Shown here: one piece after another, positions 9,111 to 64,000 of the stretch
Layout of the letters: the number at the start of each line of letters is the position of its first letter
How positions within the stretch are numbered: the stretch's first letter is position 1
IMG/VR virus record: IMGVR_UViG_3300008262_000055
DNA from: a virus
Taxonomy: Duplodnaviria; Caudoviricetes
Strand: one strand, 5' to 3'
Length of the DNA stretch: 64,000 bases
Position numbers and translations under genes: made by a program
Notes under the pieces: generated by a model
What the model saw: only the letters and a program-made list of their open reading frames with translations
The model's database searches: none
Told to the model about the DNA's origin: nothing

Positions 9111-9132
9111 AATTATTGTTTCTATCTAATAT

Positions 9133-10791: not shown

Positions 10792-10792
10792 T

Positions 10793-11698: not shown

Positions 11699-11700
11699 TC

Positions 11701-42240: not shown

Positions 42241-42350
42241 TGGTGTGGTCGGTAGGATTCGAACCTACAAAGACGGCGGCTATGCCTATGTCCCATTCCC
42301 AAGTGCGTTTCGCAACGGACCGGAGGTCTGCCAATTCCACTTACGACCAC
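42241..42350 (-). tRNA. tRNA-like RNA, 110 nt, encoded CCA, anticodon not assignable
   Basis: Acceptor GTGGTCG/CGACCAC + A + CCA; T-arm GTAGG-TTCGAAT-CCTAC; D-loop GGAATTGGCAGAC; 55 nt between D and T arms. Confidence 0.75.
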
Positions 42351-42412: not shown

Positions 42413-43396
42413 ATGAACGACTTTCAATCCATTCCATTCGAAGAAATAATACAATTTGGCCAAAGGACAATGTTGGATCGTCCTCTTTTTAATGTTAGCT
42501 GGATATTGGGACGTTTCTGTAATTACTCTTGTTCTTACTGTTGGCCCTATGCTCATTCAGATAAAGTAGACTTTAAGGATCTAGGACTTTATCAAAAAAC
42601 CATTGATGAAATCAAAAGACAAGCTAGACAAAACGGTTTCAATGAATTCCATTGGAGCTTTAGCGGAGGTGAACCAACAGCATATAAACATCTAGCTGAT
42701 TTGGTTAAACACTTAGACGAAACTGAAAGCACCTACCAAAGTATTCACATGACTACCAATTTGAGCCCAGGTAGTAAGTGGTGGAACATTTGGGCAAGAA
42801 ATACAGAAATGCTACAACGGCGTAGCATCACAGCCAGCTATCACTCGGAGTTTGCCAAAGAGCAAGAGTTTGGCGACAAGTGTTTACAGCTAACTTATGA
42901 TTTAGTACATGTTACAGTTAATCAGGTAATGGTTCCTGATAAATTTTATGAGCTGTATGACCGCTGCGAACGATTCTATAAAAGAGGAATCAATGTAACA
43001 TTAAAACCACAGAGCGATCCAACTGCTAGTTCTGTAGTATCAGGTTACACAGATGACATGATAAAATTAATGCGGGAAGGTTTTCCGCAAACAGCTAATG
43101 ATGAACCAGTTTATCAAGTAGCTTTATATGATCGTAATAGGACCGAGTATCTGTTAGATCAAGCAGAAAGGTTTAATGCTTTTAATTTTAATAAATTTGA
43201 AAATTGGAAATGTAATAGTGGTTACCAAAGTGTAGTAATTCGGGGAAATGAAGTGAAACGTGCTTACAGTTGTCATGATCCTAGTCTAGGAACACTAACT
43301 GATGGGTTTGATTTATTCCAAGAACCTAAAATATGTTCTACACCTAGTTGTGTAAGTTCGGCTGATAGTAAAATACCAAAGGTTAAAATTGTTTAA
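42413..43396 (+). CDS. Radical SAM protein (subfamily A) with C-terminal Cys cluster
   Basis: CNYSCSYC, SGGEPT, WKCNSG...SC...ICSTPSC; GTAAATA core at 42397-42403. Confidence 0.9.
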   Translation: MNDFQSIPFEEIIQFGQRTMLDRPLFNVSWILGRFCNYSCSYCWPYAHSDKVDFKDLGLYQKTIDEIKRQARQNGFNEFHWSFSGGEPTAYKHLADLVKHLDETESTYQSIHMTTNLSPGSKWWNIWARNTEMLQRRSITASYHSEFAKEQEFGDKCLQLTYDLVHVTVNQVMVPDKFYELYDRCERFYKRGINVTLKPQSDPTASSVVSGYTDDMIKLMREGFPQTANDEPVYQVALYDRNRTEYLLDQAERFNAFNFNKFENWKCNSGYQSVVIRGNEVKRAYSCHDPSLGTLTDGFDLFQEPKICSTPSCVSSADSKIPKVKIV

Positions 43397-44462
43397 ATTT
43401 TCGCAATTAAAATCTATTCATCTTGAAATAACTAATCGCTGTCAGGCCAGCTGTCCCATGTGTGCGAGAAATATTCGCGGTGGTATTGAAAATCCTAATC
43501 TTGTCTATACTGACTGGACTTTGTCTGATTACAAAGCTATAATGACGCAAGAAGTAATTAATCAAGTAGAGGACATCTACTTTTGTGGAAATTACGGTGA
43601 TCCAGTTATTAACAATGAACTTCCTGCTTTCTGTGAATACACTAAAAACTTAAATCCTAACATTAGAATAAGAATACACACCAACGGCAGCATCAGAAAC
43701 ACTCTATGGTGGCGTAAACTAGCAGATAAACTGCCAGACGATCACGCTGTGATATTTGGCATTGATGGTGTAGACGATAAAACACAAGAGATATATCGTA
43801 TAGGCACTGACTACAATAAGATCATTGACAATGCTACAGCTTTTATACAGTCTGGTGGCAATGCCGAATGGGTCTTTATACGCTTTCAACACAATCAAGA
43901 TCAAGTTGAACAGGCTAGGACATTGGCTCAGAGTCTAGGGTTTAAAAAATTTACTGTGAAAAACACTTCTAGATTTGTTATGACTCCTTATCTCGATGTC
44001 CAAGATAAAAATGGAACGGCTGTTTATCAAATTAGACCACCGTCAGACATGCCTCTGACATTTATAGACAAAAAAACATTATCAATGTATAAGGACGTAG
44101 TAGAAACATCAGTTATAGAATGTAAAGTATTAAAAGATAAAGAAATATACATTGACGCACATAAGAATTTATATCCTTGCTGTTGGTTAGCCACTGTACC
44201 GTATGCTTACGAGACAGATGATATAACAGGAAAAATTAAAAAAGAAATGAAACAACAGGATCTAGAAATACTAGATACAATTGGCACTATCAACACATTA
44301 GAAAAATCTATAAAAGACATAATCGACTCGGACGGATATCAAACTGTTTGGAACAATCGCTGGCATAATGACAAATTAATCATGTGTGCTAGAACCTGTG
44401 GTGTATCGGAACAAGCAGTATTTTCACAACCTAAAGATCAAATAATAAATGAAACCCATTAA
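43389..44462 (+). CDS. Radical SAM / twitch-SPASM protein (subfamily B)
   Basis: CQASCPMC, CGNYGDP, HTNGS, ECK...YPCC...CARTC. Confidence 0.9.
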   Translation: MFKFSQLKSIHLEITNRCQASCPMCARNIRGGIENPNLVYTDWTLSDYKAIMTQEVINQVEDIYFCGNYGDPVINNELPAFCEYTKNLNPNIRIRIHTNGSIRNTLWWRKLADKLPDDHAVIFGIDGVDDKTQEIYRIGTDYNKIIDNATAFIQSGGNAEWVFIRFQHNQDQVEQARTLAQSLGFKKFTVKNTSRFVMTPYLDVQDKNGTAVYQIRPPSDMPLTFIDKKTLSMYKDVVETSVIECKVLKDKEIYIDAHKNLYPCCWLATVPYAYETDDITGKIKKEMKQQDLEILDTIGTINTLEKSIKDIIDSDGYQTVWNNRWHNDKLIMCARTCGVSEQAVFSQPKDQIINETH

Positions 44463-45483
44463 GATAGTTTCTACTCAAGATTCGGATTATTTAGAAGTAC
44501 GTTGGAACCCTAACAATGTATGTAACTTCTCTTGTCGTTATTGTTTTCCCGGCTCCAACGAAGGTGATCACAAATCACCCAAGGATCTAGATCTTATCAT
44601 CGATAACTTCAATCATTTTTTAAAACAATATAGAGAAAAATTAGGTAAAACCAAAGTACATTTAAAGATTGCCGGCGGAGAACCTACACTCTGGAAAGAC
44701 CTTGCGGTGTTTATTGATCGCATTAAACAACAGAATGATGTTTACATTACACTGATATCCAACGGATCTCGAACCCTGCGGTGGTGGAAACAGTATGGGC
44801 ATCTCATAGACAATGTTACACTCAGTTATCATGTGGCACAGGCTAACTTAGAACATCACATAGAAGTAGCAGATACTATGTTTGAACTAGGTAAAAAAAC
44901 CACTGTAATGGTATTAATGGATCCCGATCATTGGGATAAAGCTGTAAGTGATATTGAATATATGAAAAGTTACAGCAGACACAAGTGGTTTATACAAACA
45001 GCTGAAGTCATAGAACCTGATCATATGTCATTAAACAAGATAAAAATCATCACAGGACAGGAACGTCGATATGATCAGGAACAAAAACGTTATATGAAAT
45101 GGGGCTTAAAAAGATTACCCGGCTTAGGTTGGTTTATTAAGAATTGGAAAATCTTTGTAAACAATATAAAAATATGGGAAAGTAAAGCAACATTAGAAGA
45201 TGGTAAAACTATTAATGCTAGACCACAAACTTATATCAATAATAACTGGAATAATTTTAAAGGTTGGCAATGTAATTTAGGCATTGAAGGAGTTTACATA
45301 CATTGGGATGGTACTATTATAGGATCCTGCTGGCAAAAGCTCTACGGTTTAGATTACAGTTTTAATATTCTTTCTGAAGATTTTGTTGAAAAGTTTAATC
45401 CAGAGTTTAAACCAGTGATCTGCGGAATCAATAATTGTTTCTGCCAGCCAGAAACTCATATATCAAAATTTAAACTTAGTTAA
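44449..45483 (+). CDS. Radical SAM protein (subfamily A)
   Basis: CNFSCRYC, AGGEPT, SNGS, WQCNLG...SC...ICGINNCFC. Confidence 0.9.
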   Translation: MKPIKIVSTQDSDYLEVRWNPNNVCNFSCRYCFPGSNEGDHKSPKDLDLIIDNFNHFLKQYREKLGKTKVHLKIAGGEPTLWKDLAVFIDRIKQQNDVYITLISNGSRTLRWWKQYGHLIDNVTLSYHVAQANLEHHIEVADTMFELGKKTTVMVLMDPDHWDKAVSDIEYMKSYSRHKWFIQTAEVIEPDHMSLNKIKIITGQERRYDQEQKRYMKWGLKRLPGLGWFIKNWKIFVNNIKIWESKATLEDGKTINARPQTYINNNWNNFKGWQCNLGIEGVYIHWDGTIIGSCWQKLYGLDYSFNILSEDFVEKFNPEFKPVICGINNCFCQPETHISKFKLS

Positions 45484-46371
45484 CGGTATATCCGCAGCAC
45501 AAGTACACCAGTCTCTTGTACATGAGATTGGCTCTAATGGAACAGCAAATGTTCCTGTATAGATATTTCCTAGGCTACCACCTACACGACAAGTGGCACG
45601 ATGTACTTCTCCGTCCCAGTTAATCATTAGACTTTCAATGCCCGCATGACATTTCCAATCTTTGAAATTGTTTATTTTCTTTTTGATGATATCGTTAGCG
45701 TGTAGATAAACTTTTTCTCCGCTATCTTCAGTTATTACTGTGTTAGGTTTGACCGTGGCATCTTTTGATAGTATCCATTCGAGGTCTTTACCGTCGTATC
45801 TCATGTCATCGAAAACATTGTGGTCACCTTCTGTCCAACGTATTCTACGAACAGCATACTTAATTCCTGCTTTGTCTAAAAATTCAACTGCTTCTCTAAC
45901 ATCACTCATATGATTATGATGTGCCATAACATTAACAAAAAAGTCTAGATTAGTATCTGCGAACTTTAACTCGTGGATAGTACCTAATACCCTTTTCCAA
46001 TCGTACTCAAAGTGTAAACTTATTACCATATGATTAAAAAATATTGAATTATCTATGTACCATCTAGCAGTTCTAGTGCCGTTAGTTGTTACATTGACCC
46101 AGAAAATATCTTTACGCTTCATATAATCGAATAGATCTTCTATATCTGGATGTACACAAGGCTCCCCTCCGGTTAAACTAATACGTAAAGGTTTACCTAA
46201 TTCGCAGAGTCGGTCTACAGTTTGTTCTAAAATATTGATATCAGTATGTGGACTGTAATGATCGTGAATGCTTTCCGGACAGTATGAGCAGTCGTAATTA
46301 CAACGCTTGCCAATATTCCACTCAACTTTAATTTGATCTTGATGCGGCCATGAGGAGGTCACATTATACAT
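45463..46371 (-). CDS. Radical SAM protein (subfamily A)
   Basis: CNYDCSYC, TGGEP, TTNGT, WKCHAG...TC...SCTRDWCTC; start re-assigned to 46371. Confidence 0.9.
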   Translation of the reverse strand: MYNVTSSWPHQDQIKVEWNIGKRCNYDCSYCPESIHDHYSPHTDINILEQTVDRLCELGKPLRISLTGGEPCVHPDIEDLFDYMKRKDIFWVNVTTNGTRTARWYIDNSIFFNHMVISLHFEYDWKRVLGTIHELKFADTNLDFFVNVMAHHNHMSDVREAVEFLDKAGIKYAVRRIRWTEGDHNVFDDMRYDGKDLEWILSKDATVKPNTVITEDSGEKVYLHANDIIKKKINNFKDWKCHAGIESLMINWDGEVHRATCRVGGSLGNIYTGTFAVPLEPISCTRDWCTCAADIPLTKFKF

Positions 46372-47632
46372 ATGATTTAAATTCCGGTGTAATGTCTTCA
46401 AACTTCCATGTGTCTCTTGATTTATCCAGTCTATGATTGAATTCAACACAGTCGTTCCATTTATCATGTTGATCACGTGCTTGTAGATAGTTGATGTTGT
46501 CTTTTATCTGACCTAACGTATATTCTAAAAGCTGCGGATGTTCTTTAACTAATTTAAAGTCCTTGACTCGTAGACTCAATGCTTCTAATTTTTGTATCGC
46601 TAACTGTTTTAATTCTTTAGGTAACACCTGTGCTGATAATACTTTAGGATATTCTACCCTATGGGTATGAAATACTATGCCTAGATCATTTAAGAAGTAT
46701 TCGCATATTTTATCTAAGGTCAAAATATTGCTTACTTGTACAGTAACGGCACCTACTATACGACTTATATTAGATATAGTCTGTATCTGTTTGATGTTGT
46801 GTACCAGCTCGGCCCACGAAGCATTGCCCCTTATGTATTCATAGGTGCTGCCAACGCCGTCAATGCTAACATTTACTGCTACAGATTTAAATTTGGGCCA
46901 ATACTCCCAGACAGTGCGATTGCTTTTACCTAACATACTTAGATTAGTAGCATACTTGATTTCAATTTGATGCCCGTAAGGAGCCAGCATGTCTAATATG
47001 CGATAGTGCTGGGGATCCATTAACGGCTCTCCACCAGCAAACTCTACCCGGCGAAAGTGCGGTAGATTCTTTTCTAGACTAGCCCACCATTGTTCATTAT
47101 CTTGAAACTTATCTAAGAAAGGTTTTTCTTTGAGATTATGTTCTTTTACAATATGAAACATAATATTATTTTCTTTTTCGTAGAATTCTTCTACTTGATC
47201 CCAATCGTTCCAACTGGTGCTATCCATAGGATGACACATACGACATTTAAGATTACACAAATTATTCAGCTTTAACTCCATAGTAGGAATTTCAAAAGGC
47301 ATTTCAAACTCTTTGTTAATCTTGTGATTAGCATTAGGATACAATTTAATACGTGCTTCGGGTATTTTACCGTTAATGTGTCGTTGTCTAAGACTTTCTA
47401 CACCCTGATCCTCCAGACTGAAACAGGGTTCGCATTCTGGTGGACGAACACCGCCAAGCACCTGCTTGCGTATTCGTTTCATATTATCGTTATTCCAGAT
47501 CTCTTCTAAAGTTTGTTCTTGTATCTGACCAATAGGATGACTGCGACAACATACACATACTGCCCCATCTTCTCGTGTAGCAAGTCCTGTAAAAGGATGC
47601 ATACAAAATGTTGAAGGATTACTGTTGTTCAA
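46364..47632 (-). CDS. Radical SAM protein with N-terminal twitch-like Cys domain (subfamily C)
   Basis: FCMHPF...VCC...CEPC...E..G..SLR; CNLKCRMC; AGGEPL. Confidence 0.9.
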   Translation of the reverse strand: MNNSNPSTFCMHPFTGLATREDGAVCVCCRSHPIGQIQEQTLEEIWNNDNMKRIRKQVLGGVRPPECEPCFSLEDQGVESLRQRHINGKIPEARIKLYPNANHKINKEFEMPFEIPTMELKLNNLCNLKCRMCHPMDSTSWNDWDQVEEFYEKENNIMFHIVKEHNLKEKPFLDKFQDNEQWWASLEKNLPHFRRVEFAGGEPLMDPQHYRILDMLAPYGHQIEIKYATNLSMLGKSNRTVWEYWPKFKSVAVNVSIDGVGSTYEYIRGNASWAELVHNIKQIQTISNISRIVGAVTVQVSNILTLDKICEYFLNDLGIVFHTHRVEYPKVLSAQVLPKELKQLAIQKLEALSLRVKDFKLVKEHPQLLEYTLGQIKDNINYLQARDQHDKWNDCVEFNHRLDKSRDTWKFEDITPEFKSYV

Positions 47633-48350
47633 TTGCCCATGCCCTTTCTTTACACCAAAAACATTCTCCGCAAATAGGTACTTTTTGGCCTGGTTTATAA
47701 TTTTTATAGTCTAACTTTTTAAATGTACCCTCGCAGCTACGAGTAATATCAAATAATTTTTGTAAACCTAGATCTTTATACTGTTTTATTATCCAAGACT
47801 TTTCAATGAATCTGAACGGATGGACAGCAGTACGTCCCATATGGGTCATTAGTTTTAGGTGCTGGTTGTCTTCTGTTTCCTCTATATCTCTAGTAGGCAT
47901 GCCTTGAAAATCTACATCACGTGGATTCCTGGTTACAGCATTATAATAGGCATTGACATTTTCTCTATGACAGATATATTCAGCATAGGCACGTTGTTCA
48001 ATATTATCTCCACTGACTATTTTACCATACTCGTCGACCATTGTTGGGCCTTGATCACCCCACTCTAATTCAGGTGCGATAAAATTTGTATGTTTTTTAA
48101 AACCTATATGATGGAATTCTTGGAATAAAAATCTGTAAACCATCTGAGCATCGTGTTGTTGCCACGGCTTAGTTTTCCAGCAACGTATGTGATTAATGAT
48201 ATGTACATTAAACGGATAAAGATCGTTTTTTCTAACATAATCGCAGAGAATGTATGCCAGCAAAGCACTGTCGGCACCGCCACTGACACTTATAGCTATT
48301 TTATTCCAACTAGGGTCGAATGGAATAGTTAGTCCGTCTTGATTAATCAT
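47619..48350 (-). CDS. QueC-like PP-loop ATPase
   Basis: SVSGGADS (PP-loop), TRSC...CGECFWCKER (QueC-type Zn ligands). Confidence 0.7.
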   Translation of the reverse strand: MINQDGLTIPFDPSWNKIAISVSGGADSALLAYILCDYVRKNDLYPFNVHIINHIRCWKTKPWQQHDAQMVYRFLFQEFHHIGFKKHTNFIAPELEWGDQGPTMVDEYGKIVSGDNIEQRAYAEYICHRENVNAYYNAVTRNPRDVDFQGMPTRDIEETEDNQHLKLMTHMGRTAVHPFRFIEKSWIIKQYKDLGLQKLFDITRSCEGTFKKLDYKNYKPGQKVPICGECFWCKERAWAIEQQ

Positions 48351-49191
48351 TGTTTTCCAAATATCTAATTAATGGGCTAACTCCTACCGGCTCACCTTGT
48401 CTTAGAGCTAGGTGAATACTGTTAGTAGGTGTTAGGTCGAAATCTTTACAAACTTTGTAGTATCTATCTCCGTGTGTGTTCCAGAGGTAATCATTTGGCA
48501 ATTTGCGTATGAAATGTAACCCTATCATTGCCAACGCTCTATTGTTCATATTAAAATCATTCATGATAGTAATAGAATCTTGTTTAAATTTTTTGGTCCA
48601 TCTAAGACCTATTCTATTCCATCCTAATCCTAACCCTTTAGAGAGGCTAATTGCCACAGATACCACACTAGGGTGATTAAGATTGAAACTAACAGAGCGG
48701 CAACACGTGATCCACGCTCCGTCGATATGTACTGGGATATTTTTTTCCAAACATTCATTTAAGATGTCCTCCATGTTTTTGTGGGGTTGACCAACACTAG
48801 GAAAAGGCATAGCTATAATTAGTGGGAGTCCTGGGATTAGAGATCCTACATCTTTAACAAACGCTAACCCCAATCGGTCGTGGTACCTATAGTCTCCACT
48901 TACAACTTGTAGAGGTCCGTCCATATAAAGACTATCTATAAACTGTGTACAACCTATGACTATGTCTTTTCGTTCAAATGATTCTAGCCCCTGGATAGAA
49001 TTTAATTTAGAAGACATTAACCACTGTTCGGTTTCTATTTTAAATTGATCATATACTGAGTCAGAAATGTCTTTATCTATGCGTCCATTTAGTACATCTG
49101 CGATTAGTTCTTCTATACGGTTATCGGATAACGGTGAAGGTCTATCCACTTCTAGATATTGAGCAGAATAAATTGGTGCTATGCGAATCAT
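48343..49191 (-). CDS. PLP-dependent enzyme, fold type I-like (short)
   Basis: VHIDGAW, ISLSKG (Schiff-base Lys position), RIG; start 49191 follows TTAAATA. Confidence 0.6.
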   Translation of the reverse strand: MIRIAPIYSAQYLEVDRPSPLSDNRIEELIADVLNGRIDKDISDSVYDQFKIETEQWLMSSKLNSIQGLESFERKDIVIGCTQFIDSLYMDGPLQVVSGDYRYHDRLGLAFVKDVGSLIPGLPLIIAMPFPSVGQPHKNMEDILNECLEKNIPVHIDGAWITCCRSVSFNLNHPSVVSVAISLSKGLGLGWNRIGLRWTKKFKQDSITIMNDFNMNNRALAMIGLHFIRKLPNDYLWNTHGDRYYKVCKDFDLTPTNSIHLALRQGEPVGVSPLIRYLENND

Positions 49192-49195
49192 GAAA

Positions 49196-49226
49196 TATTT
49201 AACCCTAAAATAGTAGCATATAAATA
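49196..49226. promoter_or_regulatory. Divergent late promoters inside the enzyme island
   Basis: TTAAATA on minus (49196-49202); TATAAATA on plus (49219-49226), 4 nt before ATG 49231. Confidence 0.65.
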
Positions 49227-49230
49227 TTTC

Positions 49231-50658
49231 ATGGTAGAAAAAAATAAAGTATTTTGGATCCAATCAACAGATACACAGTTAGGTCAATGGCAAAAACAAA
49301 TTAAAGAAGTCACAGGATCTGACAGTTTTTGTGTGTTGCCATGGATACATCTAGCAACTAGACCCAATGGCGACATGAGGATATGTTGTGTAGCCAACGC
49401 ATCCGGAGCCGAAAGTGGTGATTATACCGTGGGGCTCGTAAAAACAGAAAATGGTGAGCCTGCTAATTTTGGTAAAGACTTGCCCATCGATGCTTTTAAT
49501 AATGACTACATGAAATCGGTACGCAAAACAATGTTAGCAGGTGAAGTTCCTGCTAGCTGTTTAAAGTGTTATGAAGAAGAACAGCAGGGTATTGCTAGTA
49601 AACGTATATGGGAAACTGGTACTTGGTATCTAAACGAAAAACTAGATATAGAAGAACTAATTAAAGAAACGCAAGAAGACGGATCTGTGCCTTATAAACT
49701 AAGATATCTAGATCTTAGACTTGGTCATACTTGTAATTTAAAATGTATTATGTGTAGTCCTCATGACAGCAGTCAATGGGTACCTGAACATAAAAAAGTT
49801 TATCCAATATTTCAAAGCCCGTTAATTAAGAAACAAATGGACTGGAGTCCTAGCCAGTTTAATAATTACTGGCATGAGAATCCTCAATTTTGGGAACAGG
49901 TATTTGATCAAATACCTAACATTCGCCAATTGTATTTTGCCGGTGGCGAGCCTTTATTGATAAAAGAACATAGAAGATTATTAGAAGAAATTATTGATAG
50001 AGGTTATGCTGACCAAATCAGTCTACGATATAACACCAACGGACTATTGATTAATGAAGAAATAATTTCAGTCTGGCAGAAATTTAAAAAAGTTAAAGTT
50101 GGTTTTAGTCTCGACGGCATGGAGCAACGTGGACATTATATAAGATATCCTTTAGATTGGAATACCATAGAACAAAGTCTTAAATTATTAGATTCGGCTC
50201 CAGATAATATTCAAACTAATATTGCCTTTGCGGCACAGATTCTTAATATAAAACACGTTCCTGAGTTTATTAAATGGAAAGTAAAAAGTAATTTTAAAAA
50301 AATAAACTTTGATAAAAATGCCGCAGGGCAGACAATGGGTGGCGGATTAATGGGAGTTCATTTATTATGGATCCCTACGTGGCTAAGTCTTAGAGTATTG
50401 CCTGCTGCTGATAAAAAAGAAATTAGAAAATTGTTTACTGAACTTCAAACCTGGTTATGGGACAATTATACACACGATACAGAATTTTGGGAAACAAATC
50501 CTTACGGATGGAAACGGTGGGAGGGTATACTAGATTGGATGGATGCCGAGGATCATACTAATTTACTTCCAGACTTCCGTGAATATATTACTACTATGGA
50601 TCGTCAGCGAGGTACTGATTTTAAAAATACATTTCCTGAACTAGCACATTTATTATGA
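49231..50658 (+). CDS. Radical SAM protein with N-terminal twitch-like Cys domain (subfamily C)
   Basis: FCVLPW...ICC...CLKC.EEE..G..SKR; CNLKCIMC; AGGEPL; NTNG. Confidence 0.9.
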   Translation: MVEKNKVFWIQSTDTQLGQWQKQIKEVTGSDSFCVLPWIHLATRPNGDMRICCVANASGAESGDYTVGLVKTENGEPANFGKDLPIDAFNNDYMKSVRKTMLAGEVPASCLKCYEEEQQGIASKRIWETGTWYLNEKLDIEELIKETQEDGSVPYKLRYLDLRLGHTCNLKCIMCSPHDSSQWVPEHKKVYPIFQSPLIKKQMDWSPSQFNNYWHENPQFWEQVFDQIPNIRQLYFAGGEPLLIKEHRRLLEEIIDRGYADQISLRYNTNGLLINEEIISVWQKFKKVKVGFSLDGMEQRGHYIRYPLDWNTIEQSLKLLDSAPDNIQTNIAFAAQILNIKHVPEFIKWKVKSNFKKINFDKNAAGQTMGGGLMGVHLLWIPTWLSLRVLPAADKKEIRKLFTELQTWLWDNYTHDTEFWETNPYGWKRWEGILDWMDAEDHTNLLPDFREYITTMDRQRGTDFKNTFPELAHLL

Positions 50659-56194: not shown

Positions 56195-56615
56195 AACAGA
56201 CATTAACACTTGGATTGAAAAACTGACAGCCAAGCAAATCATGCTTGGAGGATTGTCAGTTTGTCCCTATGCTAAAAATGCTGAATATGAAGTTGTTGAA
56301 ACTGACGGCAGCAATATAGAACCACCGCCATGGGATTTTGAGCTATTGATTTATGTATTACCAGAAAGTTGGACTCAAGATGAGTTATTTCAGTTAGCTA
56401 ATGAATACGGAAAAATTTTTCCTTCATTGGTGTTCCTACCAGATCATAAGGATAGGTATACAGAAATTAACGGAGTACAGACTAACAACGGCAAACATAA
56501 TCTTTTATTGTGCCAGTGGAGAGATAATTTAGTTTCTGCTAGAAAGAAGTTAGCATCTACTAACTATTACGATTTTTGGAACCAAGAATATTTGGAAGAG
56601 ATTTTAAAAGCATGA
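56184..56615 (+). CDS. DUF1415-like hypothetical protein
   Basis: LSVCPYAK, FLPDH. Confidence 0.45.
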   Translation: MVIKTDINTWIEKLTAKQIMLGGLSVCPYAKNAEYEVVETDGSNIEPPPWDFELLIYVLPESWTQDELFQLANEYGKIFPSLVFLPDHKDRYTEINGVQTNNGKHNLLLCQWRDNLVSARKKLASTNYYDFWNQEYLEEILKA

Positions 56616-57652
56616 TATGGACTAATTGGGATCCTCTTAAAGAAGTTATTGTAGGGAATTGTCCTAGGGGTGCCTACAGCAATAAATTAGCTCAAATATT
56701 CAGTGAAACTAGAGAAGATCTAGATAATTTAGCTGATTACTTAACCAAGCTAGGTGTACGTGTACATCGTCCAACAGTAACTAACATGGACAAACATATA
56801 GATCTAGGTTATTTTAAAATTGATAATCCCACAGCACCTATTGTTCCACGAGACCAGTATTTGGTATACGGCGAGACTGTATATCAAACATACACTAGTA
56901 TGCCGGATCGTTACTTAGACAGTAAAAACTATAATCATATTTTTAAAGAATTATTTGAGCGTGGACACAATTGGCTTAGTATGCCTCCACCTAAATTAGA
57001 AACACTTGTAGACAAGTGGTGGGCCAATGGCGAATATGTTTATCATGAGCAGTTAAAAGATCAAGTGCTGTGGCATACTGCTACAATGTTTAAGTGTGGA
57101 GATAAACTAATCACTAACACCAAGGGTCCAGGCAATAGTTTAGGCTTAGAGTGGATGAAACGTAATCTGCCAGCAAATACCATAGTAGATGTAGGTAACA
57201 CACACCAACAAGGATTTGGACATATAGATCACGGCTGGTTTATGACCAACGACGATCTAGTATTCTGTGTAAACAAATCGTGGGTACCAGAACCGTTACT
57301 CAACAAGCAGATCATAGAACTAGAAGACCATTTTGAAAAGTTTGATGACAGTAAATTTATTGCTGATTATTCTGCTACTGACGGTAAGTTTAGCGATGCG
57401 TGGATTGACAAGTGGCTAACCCAATGGAAGGGTTATGCTCAGGAAGTATTCTTCGACAGCAATGTACTAGTTATCGATAGCCAGAATGTATTGTTTAGCA
57501 ATTACCAGCCTGGCATTTTTAAAGTTATGGAACGTTATGGCATTAACTGTCATGTAGTTCCACAACGCCACGGATTATTCTGGGAAGCGGGTATCCATTG
57601 CCTAACTTTAGATTTAGTCAGAGATGGCGAATGTAGATCTATAGTAACTTAA
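56612..57652 (+). CDS. Amidinotransferase (glycine / inosamine-phosphate amidinotransferase family)
   Basis: NWDPLKEVIVG, PRD, GHID, GIHCLTLD (catalytic Cys); 346 aa from ATG 56612. Confidence 0.85.
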   Translation: MIWTNWDPLKEVIVGNCPRGAYSNKLAQIFSETREDLDNLADYLTKLGVRVHRPTVTNMDKHIDLGYFKIDNPTAPIVPRDQYLVYGETVYQTYTSMPDRYLDSKNYNHIFKELFERGHNWLSMPPPKLETLVDKWWANGEYVYHEQLKDQVLWHTATMFKCGDKLITNTKGPGNSLGLEWMKRNLPANTIVDVGNTHQQGFGHIDHGWFMTNDDLVFCVNKSWVPEPLLNKQIIELEDHFEKFDDSKFIADYSATDGKFSDAWIDKWLTQWKGYAQEVFFDSNVLVIDSQNVLFSNYQPGIFKVMERYGINCHVVPQRHGLFWEAGIHCLTLDLVRDGECRSIVT

Positions 57653-58804
57653 CGCTATTGTTAATTTAAATTCTAATTCATCAAAATAATCCTGTGTAGC
57701 ATTTACAGGAATTACGATCAATAACCCAGACCCGCCCTCATTCCACATACCTGCACTGATACCATATTGATAAAGAAATTTTTCAAATATTTCTTCTAAC
57801 GGTTTATCATTCAATAATTGTAGATTAAACACTAACCCGTGATGATTAAAGTTTTTAATTAACTTTTGATCTTTCAATCGATGAAATACTTTTTTAGCTG
57901 TGTCTAATATTTGGGGATATCGATCAAATAATTGTTCCTCTTCGATAATATCCAAATAGGCAATAGTAGAATAAATTCCACTGAGACTAAAACTATAACT
58001 AAAACCGTGTGTAAAAACTTGACCTTTAATTTTAGAGAATATCTTTTCGTTAATAAGAGTAGCACTGAGGGGGAAATAGCCAGATGTAAATGCCTTGCCA
58101 ACGGTGAATATGTCAGGCTCTACAATTCCAGACCAGCCAAAGAAAGTACCAGTCTTCCCACCGCACATGGCGATGTCATCGACAATAAGAACTATGTTTT
58201 TATCGGTACATATCTTGCGTAGGCTGTTCCAGAAATCTTGACCCGGGTCATATAATCCATTTTGCCAACTTGCTGTTTCTATAATTACAGCACAAAGGTC
58301 ATCAGTGATATTGTCTAAATTATAGTCGCTGACAACACAACGAGGATCTTTACCAAAGAAGCCTGTCATGTAAGTTGCGTCACTGACACTTGAACTTAGA
58401 TATGTACTACCGTGATAACTTTTCTTAAATCCTAAAAACTTATCGCGACCGTTGTATAGTTGTGCTAATCTCAAAGCACCTTCGACGGCATCACTACCGC
58501 TTAAAGCAAATACACTTCTATATCCTTGGCTTAGATCATATAGTCGTTGGCTTAGTTCAAGGACGGCAGAATTAGTTGTATAAAATTCGCCCGAACAAAA
58601 AGGAAGATCTTTCATCTGTTGTTCAACACGATCAATGATATCTTTCCTTTTGAACCCCAACGGAAAACACCCGCAGTTGCCAAGACTTAGATCTAACAGT
58701 TGATTACCGCTTTCTATAAATCCGTAATCTGTATATTCTGAAATCTCTCTTACAGAAACATTTTCGTTGGTAACATACGGAAAAATTAATTTGTTTATAG
58801 ACAT
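57614..58804 (-). CDS. Class III aminotransferase (PLP)
   Basis: SGSDAVEGAL, SYHGST, LIVDDI...GKTG, TVGKAFTSG (Lys), HGFSYS. Confidence 0.85.
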   Translation of the reverse strand: MSINKLIFPYVTNENVSVREISEYTDYGFIESGNQLLDLSLGNCGCFPLGFKRKDIIDRVEQQMKDLPFCSGEFYTTNSAVLELSQRLYDLSQGYRSVFALSGSDAVEGALRLAQLYNGRDKFLGFKKSYHGSTYLSSSVSDATYMTGFFGKDPRCVVSDYNLDNITDDLCAVIIETASWQNGLYDPGQDFWNSLRKICTDKNIVLIVDDIAMCGGKTGTFFGWSGIVEPDIFTVGKAFTSGYFPLSATLINEKIFSKIKGQVFTHGFSYSFSLSGIYSTIAYLDIIEEEQLFDRYPQILDTAKKVFHRLKDQKLIKNFNHHGLVFNLQLLNDKPLEEIFEKFLYQYGISAGMWNEGGSGLLIVIPVNATQDYFDELEFKLTIALSYYRSTFAISD

Positions 58805-59388
58805 ATAGTTAAAGATACTCGTTTAGAACTTAGATTTTCTACTCCGTGTATTGTAGTGACATCTAATTCATGCCATGTTTTTTGAGGTATTATTTCAGAC
58901 TCAACAATATCTAATCTTGTATATGGAATAACAACCTGCGGAGTAATTTTTAAATCTTTATATTCATCCTTTGGTTTATAAAATGTAGTACTAGCTGCCC
59001 CACCAGTTTCTAACAAATAGTTTACTGCCTTTGATCTAGATTCGTCAATGTGGGGAGGGACCAAAGACCCGTTTGACATTACTTGAATAAATGCTATACA
59101 CTCAAACGGAATGTTAGTTTTTAACCAATCTTTAACTAGATCACTAATCTCAATAAAATCGTAATCTGCTAAATTTGGAAATATTTTTTTCCCCTCGGAA
59201 TACCGATATCCAATATTGGTGATTGGATCGTAATCAATATTCCCTATAATACTTAAAGTTTTTAGATTTGTATTAATTAACAGTTCGTCATTTTGGTGAC
59301 AGTTGGCATTTTTAGATATTGTATCGAATATATCTTGCTCTATTTCAAAAGGTAGAGGTGGAAGATTTAGATAATTAATATAGCTCAT
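58795..59388 (-). CDS. 2OG/cupin oxygenase-like
   Basis: VPPHID, AVNYLL..GG, WHELD...HGV, RVSLTI; TATAAATA on minus at 59395-59402. Confidence 0.7.
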   Translation of the reverse strand: MSYINYLNLPPLPFEIEQDIFDTISKNANCHQNDELLINTNLKTLSIIGNIDYDPITNIGYRYSEGKKIFPNLADYDFIEISDLVKDWLKTNIPFECIAFIQVMSNGSLVPPHIDESRSKAVNYLLETGGAASTTFYKPKDEYKDLKITPQVVIPYTRLDIVESEIIPQKTWHELDVTTIHGVENLSSKRVSLTICL

Positions 59389-59412
59389 GAGTGATATTTA
59401 TAAGGTGATAAA

Positions 59413-61023
59413 ATGAAGATAGTTGTTGTTGGCGGAGGCAGTTCGGGATGGATGACAGCCAGTTGGTTGAACAAGTTTGTTCCAAACAGCAAAATTACTC
59501 TTGTTGAAAGTCCAGCAGTTCCAAGGATAGGTGTCGGTGAATCGGTAACCGTACACTTAACGGAATTTATCAGAGTATTGGGAATTGACGAGCATCATTT
59601 TATGTTTCATACGGGTAGTGTTTACAAGTACGGAAATAACTTTATAAATTGGTTAGAAGGCAAAGGCGAAAACGAATTATTTACTTTTGCCTTTAACAAG
59701 AATAAAAGTCATCTTTATTCATCACCTTACAAAGGCGTTTCTTGGGACGATCATAGAGATGTGCGAGTTGAGGAAACTAGATTAACTGACTATTGGTTAG
59801 AATTGTTTAAACAGGGAAAAACTGATAGAAACTTTAGTAAGAATTTTACATCATGGACATCATTCACTGAAGATCTAAAAGCACCGTTCGTTGACGGAAT
59901 ATCTTATTTGCCAAAAAATGATCTTGCCTGGGCTTATCATATTAACACTGAAAAATTTGCAGACTACTTAAAAGAGTTTGTTGCTGGCCCCGGTGGTGTA
60001 GAACATAAGATTGCACATATAAAACAAATTATTAAATCTGGCCAGACTATAGAAAAAATTCTGTTTGATGACAACACGGAAATAACAGCAGACCTTTATG
60101 TTGATTGTTCTGGTTTTCATAGAGTATTGGTTAAAGAATTTGACAACGTTCAGTGGAAGTGGTATGAAAACAATGTAGCAGACAGTGCCTATGTTTGCCA
60201 GTTAGATTATATCGATCCAGAAAAAGAAATGGTAAATTATACCAAGTCAATAGCTATGAACAAGGGTTGGTGTTTTGATATCAGTTTATTTCATAGGCGA
60301 GGCACAGGATATATTTTTAGCAATGATTTTATTAGCGATGATGAGGTGTTAGCCGAGTATCGTAGTAAGATACTAACTAAGCCCAAGTTTGAACCTAGAA
60401 AAATCAAGTGGGATAAAAAACGTATGTTGAACCCCGGGTTTGGTAATGTATGTGCTATAGGTATGACCATAGGATTTGTTGAGCCAATGGAGGCTAACAT
60501 GTTAGGAGTAATATCTAATTCAGCATGGGAACTTACTCACGTTTTAGAGGATCATAATTTTGATACAAGAAATATAGACTGGTCACGCTACAATACTAAA
60601 ATAGGACATACCTTTGATGATGTGGCAGATTTTATTTTAGTACATTATACACTCAGTCCAAGAACTGATAATGAATACTGGGAGGAAATGCGTAGTATTG
60701 GTCGTAGATTAAAACATGAAGAACTGTTATTAGACAAATATAATGATTATAAAAATACCATAGACGGTGCTTCTCAGAGCCTATGCTTCTTTCCAGATTA
60801 CATGTGGATTGAACTAGCAGCTACTTGGAATATAGATCTAAGTAAATGGCCGTCTAAAAAAATCAGCGATGACGAACTTCGCATGGCAGAGTTACATTTT
60901 GATTATCTGAGAAATCATTTAAATCTAGCTTCTAAAAAATTCCCACAATATTATCATTATCTCAAAGACAATATTTTTAAAGGTATGACTCCGCAAGAGT
61001 GGATGGACGCAGCTAAAATCTAA
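59413..61023 (+). CDS. Flavin-dependent halogenase family (tryptophan halogenase-like)
   Basis: VVGGGSSGW, IGVGES, YKYGNNFINW (catalytic Lys position), AYHIN, DCSGF, GWCFDISL, GFVEPMEA. Confidence 0.85.
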   Translation: MKIVVVGGGSSGWMTASWLNKFVPNSKITLVESPAVPRIGVGESVTVHLTEFIRVLGIDEHHFMFHTGSVYKYGNNFINWLEGKGENELFTFAFNKNKSHLYSSPYKGVSWDDHRDVRVEETRLTDYWLELFKQGKTDRNFSKNFTSWTSFTEDLKAPFVDGISYLPKNDLAWAYHINTEKFADYLKEFVAGPGGVEHKIAHIKQIIKSGQTIEKILFDDNTEITADLYVDCSGFHRVLVKEFDNVQWKWYENNVADSAYVCQLDYIDPEKEMVNYTKSIAMNKGWCFDISLFHRRGTGYIFSNDFISDDEVLAEYRSKILTKPKFEPRKIKWDKKRMLNPGFGNVCAIGMTIGFVEPMEANMLGVISNSAWELTHVLEDHNFDTRNIDWSRYNTKIGHTFDDVADFILVHYTLSPRTDNEYWEEMRSIGRRLKHEELLLDKYNDYKNTIDGASQSLCFFPDYMWIELAATWNIDLSKWPSKKISDDELRMAELHFDYLRNHLNLASKKFPQYYHYLKDNIFKGMTPQEWMDAAKI

Positions 61024-62090
61024 TGTTTTACGATACTATAAAAATATTACAGATAGAAAACAGCAGTCTATGCAATGCTGCCTGTCCGCAATGTGTACGA
61101 GAATGGAAAAATGGCGATTACAGTTTTTTTAAACAAACATTTATTCCAACTGATTTTTTTAAAAATCGTATACCACAATACATCTATGACGGATTAGAAA
61201 GAATAAATTTTAGTGGCTCTGTTGGTGATCCTTGTATGGCACCAAATTTAATTGATGTAGTCAATGTAATACGTGAAAAGAATCCTAATATTGAAATACA
61301 AATTACAACTAACGGCGGTATGCGTACTCCTAATTGGTGGCAGAATTTAGCTAAATCTTTAGGCAAAACAAAACACTATGTTATATTTGGAATAGATGGA
61401 TTAGAAGATACAAATCATATCTATAGGGTCAAAGTTAAATGGCGTAACTTAATGGATAACATTGATGCTTTTATCCAAGCAGGCGGTGTAGCCGATTGGC
61501 AATTTATACCGTTCAAACATAATCAACATCAAATTACTGCTGCTAGAATGATATCTCAAACTATGGGATTTAGAAACTTTTTTCTTTTAGCTAGTAATAG
61601 ATTTATGACTGAAGAATTGTTTGAAAAAAAATCTTTTGGTAGCGATGGTAAACAATTGATTCCGCCAATGAAAGAATATCAATTTAACATGTTTCAAGAT
61701 GATGACAGACCAACTAGCGATATTGAATGGGCAACACAGGCTGAAAAAAATTGTATTAAATGCCAAGCACAGGAAGACCGAGAAATATTTATTGATGTAG
61801 AAACGCACCTATTTCCTTGTTGTATGACAGCCGGTGCTAGGTTAACTATGGATGCTAAAGATCAAGATGGTTTTGAAAAATTATGGTTAAGATGGGGCGG
61901 AGATAATATTAAATTAGATGTTAACAATTGGGATATGATTGTTAATGGAAGATTTTTTTCTACTATACAAAAAAGCTGGAATAAGAAATTTTCCGAAGGT
62001 AGACTAATTCCATGTTCGGCATCATGTTCAGTGGGTAACTCAAATTATGTCGGTGTTCAGACTGTACAGTTTTTTGTAAATCCTAGGTAA
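61023..62090 (+). CDS. Radical SAM / twitch-SPASM protein (subfamily B)
   Basis: CNAACPQC, SGSVGDP, TTNGG, KCQ...FPCC...CSASC. Confidence 0.9.
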   Translation: MFYDTIKILQIENSSLCNAACPQCVREWKNGDYSFFKQTFIPTDFFKNRIPQYIYDGLERINFSGSVGDPCMAPNLIDVVNVIREKNPNIEIQITTNGGMRTPNWWQNLAKSLGKTKHYVIFGIDGLEDTNHIYRVKVKWRNLMDNIDAFIQAGGVADWQFIPFKHNQHQITAARMISQTMGFRNFFLLASNRFMTEELFEKKSFGSDGKQLIPPMKEYQFNMFQDDDRPTSDIEWATQAEKNCIKCQAQEDREIFIDVETHLFPCCMTAGARLTMDAKDQDGFEKLWLRWGGDNIKLDVNNWDMIVNGRFFSTIQKSWNKKFSEGRLIPCSASCSVGNSNYVGVQTVQFFVNPR

Positions 62091-62720
62091 AGGATCATTA
62101 GGCCATTTAATATAGTTTAAAAAACTGTGCTGATTTACTAACGCCATATCAACCCTATTGTTGTTAACAACTTTATCTATAAAATCAGATCTTTCTTGAT
62201 TTAATATTGGCCTGTATAAATCTATTTCAATAGGTTGTTCGCAGTAATCACTGGCTGTATAAAATGCGAATGCTTTTAGTTTTCCGTTAGTGTCTATAAA
62301 ATGATAACATGGATACATGGTAACTTTATAGACATTTTCTGTTTTTATATCTCGACATATAGTTTCTAATTGATTTTGCCAATCGACACAAATGCTATCT
62401 AGTGTTCCTTTAGAATTAATAAATGTTTCACAACAAACATCATTCCATTCTAGATATATCTTACGCCCTTTAAAATCAATATCTCGCAATCTAACACACC
62501 AGTTATATTTTTGAAATTGTGTTAGATATCTAACTTCTCTATTAAAACAATCGGATATTAGATTTTCTTCTACTGGATACTCTCGATAGCTGTTATTATT
62601 AAAATTCATACAGAGTTCTGATCGTTCTCTGTTTACTAAAGGTTCGTAAATTGCTCCGGGTCTAGTTCTATACCCGTCTTTATCTATACCATAGTAATGA
62701 AACCAATCAGTATGACTCAA
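62040..62720 (-). CDS. Protein-kinase-like-fold protein, degenerate
   Basis: F.REVRYL, YKVTMYPCYHFID..GKLKAFAFY aligns loosely with catalytic loop / DFG positions; paralogue of 63531. Confidence 0.4.
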   Translation of the reverse strand: MSHTDWFHYYGIDKDGYRTRPGAIYEPLVNRERSELCMNFNNNSYREYPVEENLISDCFNREVRYLTQFQKYNWCVRLRDIDFKGRKIYLEWNDVCCETFINSKGTLDSICVDWQNQLETICRDIKTENVYKVTMYPCYHFIDTNGKLKAFAFYTASDYCEQPIEIDLYRPILNQERSDFIDKVVNNNRVDMALVNQHSFLNYIKWPNDPLPRIYKKLYSLNTDII

Positions 62721-63507
62721 GATGATCTATACCTAACTGCTTACGGAACGCTTCTGTGAACTTGCCATCAATACGTAAAGAATATGATTGCTCCATTATC
62801 TTTTCACCGCCATGCCAGTCAACATCATTCCACCATGCTGCTCGAGTATTAAGATATGTTTTGTTTTTATTTTCTGGATCCCACAAATACATTGCCTTCT
62901 TTGTATTAGGACGGACATGTATAAACTCATTGCGATGGGGTTTGACTACATCAATGCCATTTTTAGCATCCAAGTCTCTATGTTCAAATGGAATACCGTC
63001 AGCTTCACAGTGGAAGAATATCACACGCCCTATATGTTCAAATACTGTGCCTTGTAATTGCTCAACCCATTTGACTACATTAGGGAAATAAGCGGCTTCT
63101 TCTGTTAACTTACGTGGTGCTGTCCTATCATCCCAACTACCCTCTTCCCATAGGAAATAGTAAATGTAAGGATCATAGGCACCCATGGCCATTTTAAGAT
63201 AGCGTGTAAATTTGTTACGTTGTTTATAATTGTTAAAATCTTTAAACAAATCAATGCCACCCAGATAGATGGGATCATCTTTAGGCAACGACATAAATTC
63301 GTCCATGGCTTGATATATAGGTTTCCAATGTAGCCTGTAACTCATATTATCAAAATTAAAACCGGGCTTCATCCAAGTGCCTTCTTTGGCAAACTCTCGT
63401 GCTTCGGCAAACCCTCTTAATATTTCGGGCTGTAGTTTCTCAAACTGGTCCATATTTAAGTATGGCTCCATATCAAAATACGCTTGTTCGTTTATACCTT
63501 TGATCAT
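62707..63507 (-). CDS. 2OG/cupin oxygenase-like
   Basis: PFEHRD, WWND.DWHG, SLRIDG. Confidence 0.6.
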   Translation of the reverse strand: MIKGINEQAYFDMEPYLNMDQFEKLQPEILRGFAEAREFAKEGTWMKPGFNFDNMSYRLHWKPIYQAMDEFMSLPKDDPIYLGGIDLFKDFNNYKQRNKFTRYLKMAMGAYDPYIYYFLWEEGSWDDRTAPRKLTEEAAYFPNVVKWVEQLQGTVFEHIGRVIFFHCEADGIPFEHRDLDAKNGIDVVKPHRNEFIHVRPNTKKAMYLWDPENKNKTYLNTRAAWWNDVDWHGGEKIMEQSYSLRIDGKFTEAFRKQLGIDHLESY

Positions 63508-63530
63508 TGTTTTTTATGATAATTAAATAT

Positions 63531-64000
63531 ATGAATTACGAATACTACTATAACAATGTTCCTGGAGTTGGATTATGCAGGAACAATCTTATTTACACTA
63601 GCTTAATAAGCCAAGATAAAAAAACTTTTGTTATGTGGTTCCATAATGATAGCGAATATCACAAAGGACAAAACGAAGTTGTTGATCCTATATTAATGAA
63701 TGCCAAATGGAACAGAGAAGTTAAGTATCTTATTGAAATGGCTTGGAAATATAGAGAAATGGTTCCTAAGATCAAAGAAATAGATCATATCAATCAAAAA
63801 ATCTATTTTGAAATTGACGGTGCTGATTTTTGGAATCGTGCGGGGTGTATGACTGAAAACTATGATACAGTATTGCCCGATTGGCAAGATCAGATGTTGC
63901 GAATATTAACAGCCCATAGAAGTTTAGGACTGTACAAATTTTCTATGCATCCTAGTAGCTATTTTATAGTTGACGGGCAGTTAAAAAGTATAAACTATTT
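63531..64000 (+). CDS. Protein-kinase-like-fold protein, degenerate; truncated by window edge
   Basis: Hand translation MNYEYYYNNVPG...NLIYTSLI...W.REVKYL...DWQDQM...YKFSMHPSSYFIVDGQLKSINY; TTAAATA at 63523-63529. Confidence 0.55.
   Translation, partial: MNYEYYYNNVPGVGLCRNNLIYTSLISQDKKTFVMWFHNDSEYHKGQNEVVDPILMNAKWNREVKYLIEMAWKYREMVPKIKEIDHINQKIYFEIDGADFWNRAGCMTENYDTVLPDWQDQMLRILTAHRSLGLYKFSMHPSSYFIVDGQLKSINY

Follow-up and report, generated by a model that had tools for sequence, protein, structure and literature searches.

What does a phage do with a long run of tailoring enzymes when nothing that would build their scaffold travels with them? The question is raised by positions 42413 to 64000 of IMG/VR virus record IMGVR_UViG_3300008262_000055 (Duplodnaviria; Caudoviricetes), whose 64,000 nucleotides are the window analysed here and in which a first-pass annotation, made from the letters alone, had seen a biosynthetic island of redox and group-transfer enzymes. 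Sequence comparison across related viral loci supports a coherent, selected, tailoring-only gene set rather than a chance cluster, and the account that we prefer, at a probability of around 0.4, is that the island tailors a sugar or amine unit or a glycan, probably bound for the virion.

In the open reading frame (ORF) listing of the window, the stretch from 42413 to 63507 holds 24 complete genes, and a 25th is cut at 64000. From gene to gene the spacing ranges from −51 to +39 bp, and approximately 100% of the stretch is coding; adjacent genes share 1–51 nt except at two strand switches, where they are 39 and 24 bp apart. A search for exact protein matches brought up six metagenome contigs, among them L003, which differs from the window by 28 mismatches in 12,978 bp and carries the block about 6.8 kb past the window edge, to around window-equivalent position 70,830, so the earlier description of a roughly 21-kb block of 24 overlapping genes running past that edge holds. 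As read from the window and L003 together the whole island is approximately 28.4 kb long with about 32 genes, ten of them for radical S-adenosylmethionine (SAM) enzymes (rSAM); beyond g25 and g26 the extension adds three rSAM genes (g27, which has a PF23545 zinc ribbon, and two of the B12-binding type), HODM_asu-like and AdoMet_dc (SpeD) genes and an SGNH hydrolase with a conserved GDSH block.

The upstream half of the window is given over to giant fibre and structural proteins (for example a fibre protein of 2841 aa), the large fibre and structural genes lying about 7.5 kb from the island, and a UV-endonuclease gene in the window is similar to jumbo-phage versions. The best explanation is that the phage is an uncultured, T4-like one from freshwater with a genome of roughly 350 kb, and that the island occupies an accessory region beside its tail-fibre genes; the genome size follows from the nearest IMG/VR contig (G001, 269,730 bp) being an estimated 76% complete. 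Near-identical DNA is present in 20 lake/freshwater sequencing runs from 16 studies, and no RNA dataset is listed among the runs matched in two run searches. Among 50,697 GenBank phage records megablast of the island found no match and no near relative, and tblastn found nothing for g01 and g06 and distant matches only for g08 (22–29% identity, five records) and g18 (identity up to 34%).

Two IMG/VR scans gave 119 related loci, onto which every island protein was mapped as a synteny matrix. The order g09-(g07)-g06-g05-g04-g03-g08-g02-g01 is kept in around 90 loci at 44–90% identity, and the blocks g24-g25-g26-g27, g14-g15 and g16-g20 are likewise conserved but moved, inverted or absent from one locus to another, so that the comparison of neighbourhoods across relatives, proposed earlier as a check, does reveal modules that are both conserved and shuffled. 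In L029 (2615-4591) a single 658-aa ORF encodes the halogenase and g17 in fusion and immediately precedes the amidinotransferase, and therefore the halogenase, g17 and the adjoining amidinotransferase seem tied together. Measured against G001, dN/dS is 0.01–0.13 for all 23 comparable genes, dS being saturated. Given the conserved modules, the fusion and these dN/dS values, a random gene heap is ruled out, as is the relaxed selection that had been raised as a way in which the idea of a system might fail; purifying selection on the genes is strong.

That the window has no scaffold enzyme, no transporter and no room for a precursor peptide was an early claim, and it is true also of 113 related islands. 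Across their 1.74 Mb, 0.85% of the bases lie outside matched genes or ORFs of at least 120 aa, there are only 52 gaps of at least 70 bp, and a small conserved ORF was not found beyond near-identical contigs; a cluster for a ribosomally synthesised and post-translationally modified peptide (RiPP) would call for a conserved precursor-peptide ORF, and these islands have none. Scaffold synthase, carrier protein, ligase and exporter were not seen in the same set, and none of the island proteins has a membrane-type segment. In relatives the additional gene families are 2OG-FeII_Oxy_5, SAM methyltransferases and short members of the short-chain dehydrogenase/reductase (SDR) class. Because the gaps are so sparse, the added families of these kinds and membrane segments lacking, the tailoring-only character without scaffold, transporter or precursor appears to extend across the lineage. 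A 200-aa Rossmann methyltransferase-like gene without a Pfam match stands between g01 and g02 in 65 loci (e.g. L116:16039-16641) and is absent from the window and from G001.

Table 1. Genes of the island, with window coordinates, strand and the basis of each assignment (PLP, pyridoxal phosphate; Fe/2OG, iron/2-oxoglutarate; GT-A, glycosyltransferase fold A; AF2, AlphaFold2; pLDDT, predicted local distance difference test).
Gene	Coordinates	Strand	Assignment and basis
g01	42413..43396	+	rSAM, C-terminal Cys-rich twitch-like region; Pfam Radical_SAM 44.4 bits; CxxxCxxC at residue 36
g02	43389..44462	+	rSAM; Pfam 37.7 bits; top NCBIfam W_rSAM_matur and TIGR04100, far under cut-off
g03	44449..45483	+	rSAM, architecture as g01/g04; Pfam 50.6 bits; top NCBIfam viperin and MoaA-like, under cut-off
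g04	45463..46371	-	rSAM; Pfam 53.1 bits
g05	46364..47632	-	rSAM with N-terminal twitch domain; NF033640 335 bits (cut-off 170)
g06	47619..48350	-	Virus-specific QueC-like PP-loop ATPase; Pfam QueC 17.6 bits
g07	48343..49191	-	Predicted minimal 282-aa fold-type-I PLP enzyme, decarboxylase or aminotransferase; AF2 pLDDT 90.8
g08	49231..50658	+	Second rSAM with N-terminal twitch; NF033640 400 bits (cut-off 170); 94% identical to G001 orthologue
g09	50655..51323	+	Putative Fe/2OG oxygenase, member of the core rSAM module; Asp_Arg_Hydrox 21.7 bits (cut-off 22.6)
g10-g13	51320..53597	+	Four small HxD...H proteins; no Pfam or PHROG match; HxD...H conserved in each
g14	53585..54235	+	Asp/Asn beta-hydroxylase family oxygenase; PF05118 47.9 bits, above cut-off
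g15	54222..55586	+	454 aa, two predicted domains: GT-A glycosyl-/nucleotidyl-transferase fold (10-225), class I methyltransferase-like fold (230-440)
g16	within 55577..56615	+	Short SDR-like Rossmann protein; adh_short 21.6 bits, under cut-off
g17	within 55577..56615	+	143 aa; phrog_10325 match 9e-21
g18	56612..57652	+	StrB1/HsvA/AGAT-type amidinotransferase; profile HsvA 1.8e-35, StrB1 1.8e-31
g19	57614..58804	-	Class III (omega) aminotransferase; Aminotran_3 151 bits; no specific NCBIfam equivalog
g20	58795..59388	-	HxD...H protein, putative oxygenase; H113-x-D115...H173/H181 conserved; no family match
g21	59413..61023	+	Flavin-dependent halogenase; PF04820 (Trp_halogenase) 282 bits; closest to cyanophage VirX1 (6QGM), 3.5e-57
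g22	61023..62090	+	rSAM; Pfam 36.1 bits; CNAACPQC at residue 17
g23	62040..62720	-	Paralogue of g25 (hhalign probability 99.6%); weak protein-kinase-like fold
g24	62707..63507	-	HxD...H protein, putative oxygenase, head of g24-g27 module; about 75 loci
g25	63516..64000	+	Kinase-like fold, cut by window end; profile vs TTK kinase E = 3e-4
beyond g25 (L003)			g26; Tes/MJ0619-like rSAM (g27); HODM-like; SpeD; SGNH hydrolase; two B12-rSAM genes

The enzyme families claimed at first pass fare differently (Table 1). Pfam and NCBIfam agree with the count of seven rSAM genes in the window, and all ten rSAM proteins of the island have CxxxCxxC and score 32–70 bits against PF04055 (cut-off 29.5). The start of g04 was revised to the ATG at 46371, with an 8-nt overlap with the end of g05. 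The first gene, g01, marks the island boundary, adjoins a conserved tRNA-like gene and has orthologues of at least 55% identity in 65 loci. Full members of NF033640 (N_Twi_rSAM), in which the twitch domain is N-terminal to the core, are g05 and g08, judged by whole-protein scores above 170 bits; in g05 a SPASM-type match at residues 10–70 precedes the rSAM core at 124–284. A literature search found no assigned function for this family, the papers that use the phrase describing other enzymes. It is present in 3–13 copies per sister phage record and in zero copies in 14 control genomes, and five sister records (G001–G005) hold 9–16 rSAM genes per partial genome, which to our knowledge is far above what has been reported for any cultured phage. 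In G003 (IMGVR_UViG_3300025502_001322, locus L044; about 95.4–104.6 kb), with 13 NF033640 genes in the record, seven of them form one tandem array beside the amidinotransferase module.

Within the rSAM core the QueC-like gene was only partly upheld, in that g06 keeps the motifs yet scores under the curated cut-off for PF06508 (22 bits), as do its sister orthologues at 14–20 bits. Invariant in 27 sequences are S23-G24-G25-x-D27-S28 (SGGxDS) and a Cys4 zinc site (C206, C227-x2-C230-x2-C233). In an Atlas search g06 falls in virus-only clusters, and its profile found no relative among 185,579 prokaryote species sampled at one genome each. Profile searches of the PDB with g06, g07, g15 and g24 gave nothing useful. 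The claim of two PLP enzymes stands, g19 by its Pfam score and g07 by fold only: a confident model makes g07 a fold-type-I PLP enzyme, nearest to CobD and HisC (Foldseek 4e-9), with invariant D157 and K185 (SLSK).

Eight oxygenases had been named, and HxD...H is indeed kept in all eight candidates and in at least 90% of the orthologues of each, but only g14 rises above a Pfam cut-off; g09 is marginal, with H81-x-D83...H125 conserved across 64 sequences, and the other six match nothing in Pfam, PHROG or PDB. In g24 the invariant residues are H176, D178 and H232. When the cupin-like families were compared by hhalign the only pairs found were g10/g12, paralogues at 100% probability, and g23/g25, the rest being mutually unrelated, and PHROGs returned nothing for nine of ten island proteins that lack an assignment. 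Directly after g14, both here and in the majority of the approximately 45 related loci that carry it, comes g15, a protein that had not been named before and that folds, in its AF2 model (pLDDT 84.8), as a GT-A plus methyltransferase protein. VIA-align places its GT-A domain nearest to PBCV-1 A64R (Z 9.8) and Fringe (Z 9.6) and its methyltransferase-like domain nearest to CheR (Z 8.7), and its Foldseek list also holds LH3 and COLGALT1. An Atlas cluster of 688 aa with Asp_Arg_Hydrox resembles g15 (score 0.84) and is no more than a lead to a possible fusion; among the IMG/VR loci examined there is no g14-g15 fusion.

The amidinotransferase was well called even though it has no Pfam match: the profile of g18, built from 23 orthologues, matches HsvA, StrB1, AGAT and SxtG at 1.8e-35 to 1e-24, and WDPLxEVIVG, HID and the catalytic GIHCLTLD (GxHCxTLD) align with solved members, H204, D206, H329 and C330 being invariant, so that homology and catalytic Cys, His and Asp agree. 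HsvA is a polyamine amidinotransferase and StrB1 an inosamine-phosphate amidinotransferase. The halogenase is also sound as a family assignment. It keeps GGGSSG, SVYK (aligned with the Lys of RebH and VirX1) and FVEPME (EPxE) but departs from WxWxIP, reading GWCFDIS where VirX1 has GWVWNIP and RebH GWTWKIP. For the SDR the similarity to adh_short is there and the curated cut-off is not reached, and the two kinase-like genes are real enough as paralogues, g25 with a match to a protein kinase, but the evidence for the activity is weak, with HPSSYF at the position of the HRD motif in g25. Further along this module the g27 rSAM has the PF23545 (Zn_ribbon_HMPTM) zinc ribbon, which we take to be that of the archaeal pterin methylase MJ0619, and its top NCBIfam matches are TrsS and Tes.

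How might these modules work together? Given the gene content, modules, selection, gene absences and g07 and g15 folds observed, we infer a substrate class and a product destination as follows. The island would be a virus-specific supercluster made up of five or more sub-modules, which reappear, reordered and duplicated, in relatives: six rSAM with the QueC-like ATPase and a cupin, sometimes with the PLP enzyme; an oxygenase-like, a kinase-like and an unassigned protein with the Tes/MJ0619-like rSAM (g24-g27); the hydroxylase with the GT-A/methyltransferase protein (g14-g15); the halogenase, g17, amidinotransferase, omega-aminotransferase, an oxygenase-like protein and the SDR; and SpeD, the HODM-like protein, the SGNH hydrolase and two B12-rSAM. 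Their soluble enzymes would jointly remodel a carbohydrate- or amine-type unit, whether a sugar with amino or guanidino groups, a cyclitol, or a glycan produced elsewhere by phage or host, and the remodelled unit would most probably be placed on the host-recognition surface of the virion. The twitch-type rSAM enzymes may contribute O2-independent oxidation, C–C bond formation or C-methylation at unactivated carbons, the PLP enzymes transamination or decarboxylation, the amidinotransferase conversion of amines to guanidines, the Fe/2OG enzymes hydroxylation and g15 sugar transfer and methylation, with the halogenase working in the amidinotransferase branch. Such a palette is that of aminoglycoside and aminocyclitol tailoring (BtrN, GenK/GenD1, AprD4, NeoB, StrB1, GenP, KanJ).

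The clues to substrate (g14 with g15, then the amidinotransferase, SpeD, aminotransferase and SGNH hydrolase, and the neighbours of NF033640 genes elsewhere) point weakly to carbohydrate-type chemistry. The glycan option, one of those raised at first pass, gains circumstantial support from the g15 folds and from the neighbours that N-twitch arrays have in bacteria. Arrays of NF033640 are present in 17 of 61 Bdellovibrionota-related genomes (relatives of a Pseudobdellovibrionaceae metagenome-assembled genome, MAG), with tandem triplets on a 3.26-Mb contig, and in three contexts they adjoin a 1059-aa double glycosyltransferase of family 2 (GT2), a GT2 with DUF6057, and a NodU/CmcH-type carbamoyltransferase. 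A carbamoyltransferase is immediately upstream of an N-twitch rSAM gene both in G001 (257749-259817, outside the island) and in L156 (Bdellovibrionota, 7708-13877). At about 205–206 kb of G001 a second carbamoyltransferase match and an rSAM match share one 603-aa frame. PP-loop and class V PLP genes of Bdellovibrionota, found within a few genes of the N-twitch array and considered as a parallel to g06 and g07, are not homologous to them (hhalign probability below 3%) and were dropped.

Several points weigh against the sugar or amine account. Nucleotide-sugar synthase, sugar-activating enzyme and classical GT2 were not found in the island, and Pfam GT2 finds nothing in the five sister phage records; the GT-A match of g15 is modest (Z 9–10), in a fold that also covers nucleotidyltransferases. 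Sugar pathways do not typically use omega-aminotransferases or SpeD. The resemblances of the rSAM proteins to MoaA, viperin, QueE, anSME and Tes are of a generic kind and score well short of the cut-offs, the bacterial neighbourhoods sampled were three, one on a short MAG contig, and the modules need not all serve a single product.

A virion destination had also been argued from late promoters, and that argument turns out weak, since TATAAATA is present three times in the window against 10.6 expected and the two island copies are 4–6 nt from gene starts. The copies are at 28794, 49219 and 59395, each at or within a few nt of a gene start, a placement that might reflect late transcripts with no leader or a very short one, or else promoters that work in another way. 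Few island genes have a clear Shine-Dalgarno upstream, which would fit a Bacteroidota-type host. A contig of 2.6 kb in a Crocinitomicaceae MAG (L136, GC 36.6%) carries g05 at 79% and g04 at 67.7% identity over 217 aa; it is probably a related-phage fragment binned with a Bacteroidota MAG, and hence a possible host clue.

On the outer side of g01 is a tRNA-like gene of 110 nt (42241-42350, minus strand) with a 7-bp acceptor stem, T arm and CCA, for which, as for the rest of the window, ARAGORN and Rfam made no call. It is 17–163 bp from the g01 start in 24 of the 26 loci with a BLAST match (L048, L052, L054, L064 and others) and stays beside g01 even in loci whose remaining island differs; the count is by BLAST, a strict T-arm regular expression having given an under-count of only 7/35. 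Inspected by eye, the L063 and L064 versions show at their centre a stem of 5 bp that closes a 7-nt loop, CUCAUAG, resembling an anticodon loop with CAU; in the window copy this place is taken by a GCG-AAA-CGC hairpin.

The best-surviving alternative, which we still consider unlikely, is that the island post-translationally modifies phage structural proteins (fibres, collagen-like proteins, capsid decoration) by hydroxylation, cross-linking and halogenation followed by O-glycosylation in the style of lysyl hydroxylase and ColGalT. The pairing of the AspH-family g14 with g15 suits it, as do LH3 among the top Foldseek E-values of g15 with COLGALT1 listed, the capsid glycosyltransferase A64R of PBCV-1 as its top VIA-align match, the 688-aa Atlas cluster as a lead and the nearness of the giant fibre genes. 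The halogenase and 2OG-oxygenase array of S-CREM1 has a collagen-like gene two genes upstream, collagen-like and tail-collar proteins were proposed as dioxygenase substrates by Iyer et al. 2010 (PMC2938197), and the S-SCSM2R virion proteome includes an amidinotransferase and a prolyl-hydroxylase-like protein (PMC12801897). However the amidinotransferase, omega-aminotransferase, SpeD, PLP and PP-loop ATPase families are those known from small-molecule chemistry, no conserved substrate gene travels with the modules, and, because CxxxCxxC is at residues 17–36 or behind an N-terminal twitch in the rSAM proteins, these have no room for a peptide-recognition domain (RiPP recognition element, RRE).

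That the island hypermodifies the DNA of the phage, or a precursor of nucleotide or pterin type, for instance a 7-deazaguanine with g06 as the missing QueC-type enzyme, seems quite improbable to us. Consistent with it are the SGGxDS and Cys4 zinc motifs of g06, the g27 zinc ribbon with its presumed MJ0619 kinship, and G001, which has FolE and QueD, has no canonical QueC and gives its sole QueC-like signal at the g06 orthologue. Phage thymidine hypermodification employs PLP, rSAM and flavin enzymes too, according to one published account (PMC8989533). Yet g06 is under the QueC cut-off and is fixed in the rSAM operon rather than with folE, queD or queE, and G003 has FolE and QueD while no QueC-like signal was found there. 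Across the five sister records, which are 49–80% complete fragments, FolE is found in 2/5, QueD in 3/5 and Pfam TGT/DpdA in none. ThyA-family proteins give a single match in 2/5 of them and none in G001, where a thymidylate-synthase-like hydroxymethylase was not found, the 5-HMUDK and aGPT-Pplase families not having been searched for. Ten rSAM and eight oxygenase-like genes are moreover far more than any known DNA-base pathway uses.

Equally doubtful is a free secondary metabolite made from a host precursor and used in infection or released at lysis, such as a halogenated or guanidinylated polyamine or an aminoglycoside-like or siderophore-like compound. HsvA-type amidinotransferases do make small molecules, phevamine being an example, and SpeD with an omega-aminotransferase suggests polyamine chemistry. 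Iyer et al. 2010 read the cyanophage dioxygenase/halogenase arrays as secondary-metabolite makers (PMC2938197), and the authors describing S-SCSM2R termed its AHBA_syn, amidinotransferase and rSAM trio 'antibiotic synthesis genes' (PMC12801897). Against this, scaffold synthase, carrier protein, ligase and exporter were not seen in the 113 islands, and the advantage to a lytic phage is unclear.

A bolder proposal, which we rate as very doubtful, starts from g06 being without a cellular counterpart and takes the pathway as virus-exclusive, the core and the amidinotransferase-halogenase branch building a moiety without precedent, which the phage would then attach to its particle. Such a moiety would be heavily oxidised, C–C remodelled, guanidinylated and possibly halogenated, of the amino-sugar or cyclitol type. 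In a stranger variant it would be built on the anticodon-less tRNA-like RNA near g01 (24 loci), giving an RNA-tethered or RNA-modifying pathway.

Least probable of all is that the genes share no pathway and have piled up as independent accessory genes in a hyperplastic region, of the sort usually found between T4-like core modules. Module order and content do vary widely among relatives, the oxygenase-like genes are mostly mutually unrelated and hypervariable regions of such a kind are documented (PMC7029224). Against this, the nine-gene core retains its order and overlapping frames in about 90 loci, at identities as low as 44%, two genes are joined by the halogenase-g17 fusion, every gene compared is under strong purifying selection and the content is almost wholly redox and group-transfer enzymes.

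If the island decorates the virion, as the sugar or amine account would have it, or DNA, it would add a new layer to the chemistry of phage surfaces or genomes and could affect host range and defence evasion. The lineage is widespread, to judge from the 20 freshwater runs, while the GenBank phage records lack the core families, except that one of the three core genes compared has distant matches there. In any case the island offers, in compact form, uncharacterised enzymes of the rSAM, Fe/2OG, halogenase and amidinotransferase kinds, and the NF033640 family gains a testable context in its glycosyltransferase and carbamoyltransferase neighbours in bacteria and phages.

How far, then, is the island like systems already described? 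The aminoglycoside and aminocyclitol sets share with it twitch rSAM, B12-rSAM, omega-aminotransferase, amidinotransferase, kinase-fold, Fe/2OG and SDR proteins, with homologies at superfamily level only. In contrast to those sets, the 34 island proteins and the ten commonest extra clusters include neither a 2-deoxy-scyllo-inosose synthase (DOIS) nor an inositol-phosphate synthase, and no GT-B glycosyltransferase, resistance gene or exporter was found in the island, where the sole glycosyltransferase-type gene is the GT-A-like g15. The host recognition cluster (HRC) of pelagimyophages and cyanomyophages, with fibres, glycosyltransferases and 'radical SAM cassettes' (Zaragoza-Solas et al. 2020, PMC7029224), is similarly a large, hypervariable, fibre-adjacent island with rSAM cassettes; that paper mentions the cassettes descriptively only, and the core of six rSAM with a QueC-like protein was not found described there. 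Nor did the literature searched yield a description of that core or of rSAM expansion on this scale, the NF033640 family to which g05 and g08 belong being expanded to several copies in each of these phage records. The cultured T4-like cyanophage S-SCSM2R has a trio of AHBA_syn, inosamine amidinotransferase and rSAM maturase (ORF305-309), and its glycine amidinotransferase (ORF266) was detected in the virion proteome (PMC12801897). It is like the island in bringing amidinotransferase, PLP enzyme and rSAM together and differs in having three genes against about 32, and the match of g18 is partial (33% identity over 36% of the length) and falls in the glycine amidinotransferase gene, not in the trio.

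Closest are the cyanophage arrays. For Syn9 (gp49-type cluster) ten tandem dioxygenases and two halogenases were described and a secondary metabolite proposed (Iyer, Abhiman, de Souza & Aravind 2010, PMC2938197), and comparable arrays were seen here in S-CREM1 and HTVC008M. In each case a T4-like phage carries divergent tandem Fe/2OG-type oxygenases and a VirX1-type halogenase next to structural genes, without scaffold enzyme, as in the island, where the counterparts are the g09-g14 tandem, g20, g24 and g21. The differences are that the arrays lack rSAM, PP-loop, amidinotransferase and aminotransferase genes, whereas ten rSAM dominate the island, that most of the oxygenase-like genes of the island match no Pfam or PHROG family, and that its halogenase is only 25–31% identical to the cyanophage enzymes. 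As far as sequence can tell, the island is a real, conserved and selected feature that belongs with the known phage tailoring islands, the cyanophage dioxygenase/halogenase arrays being its nearest kin.

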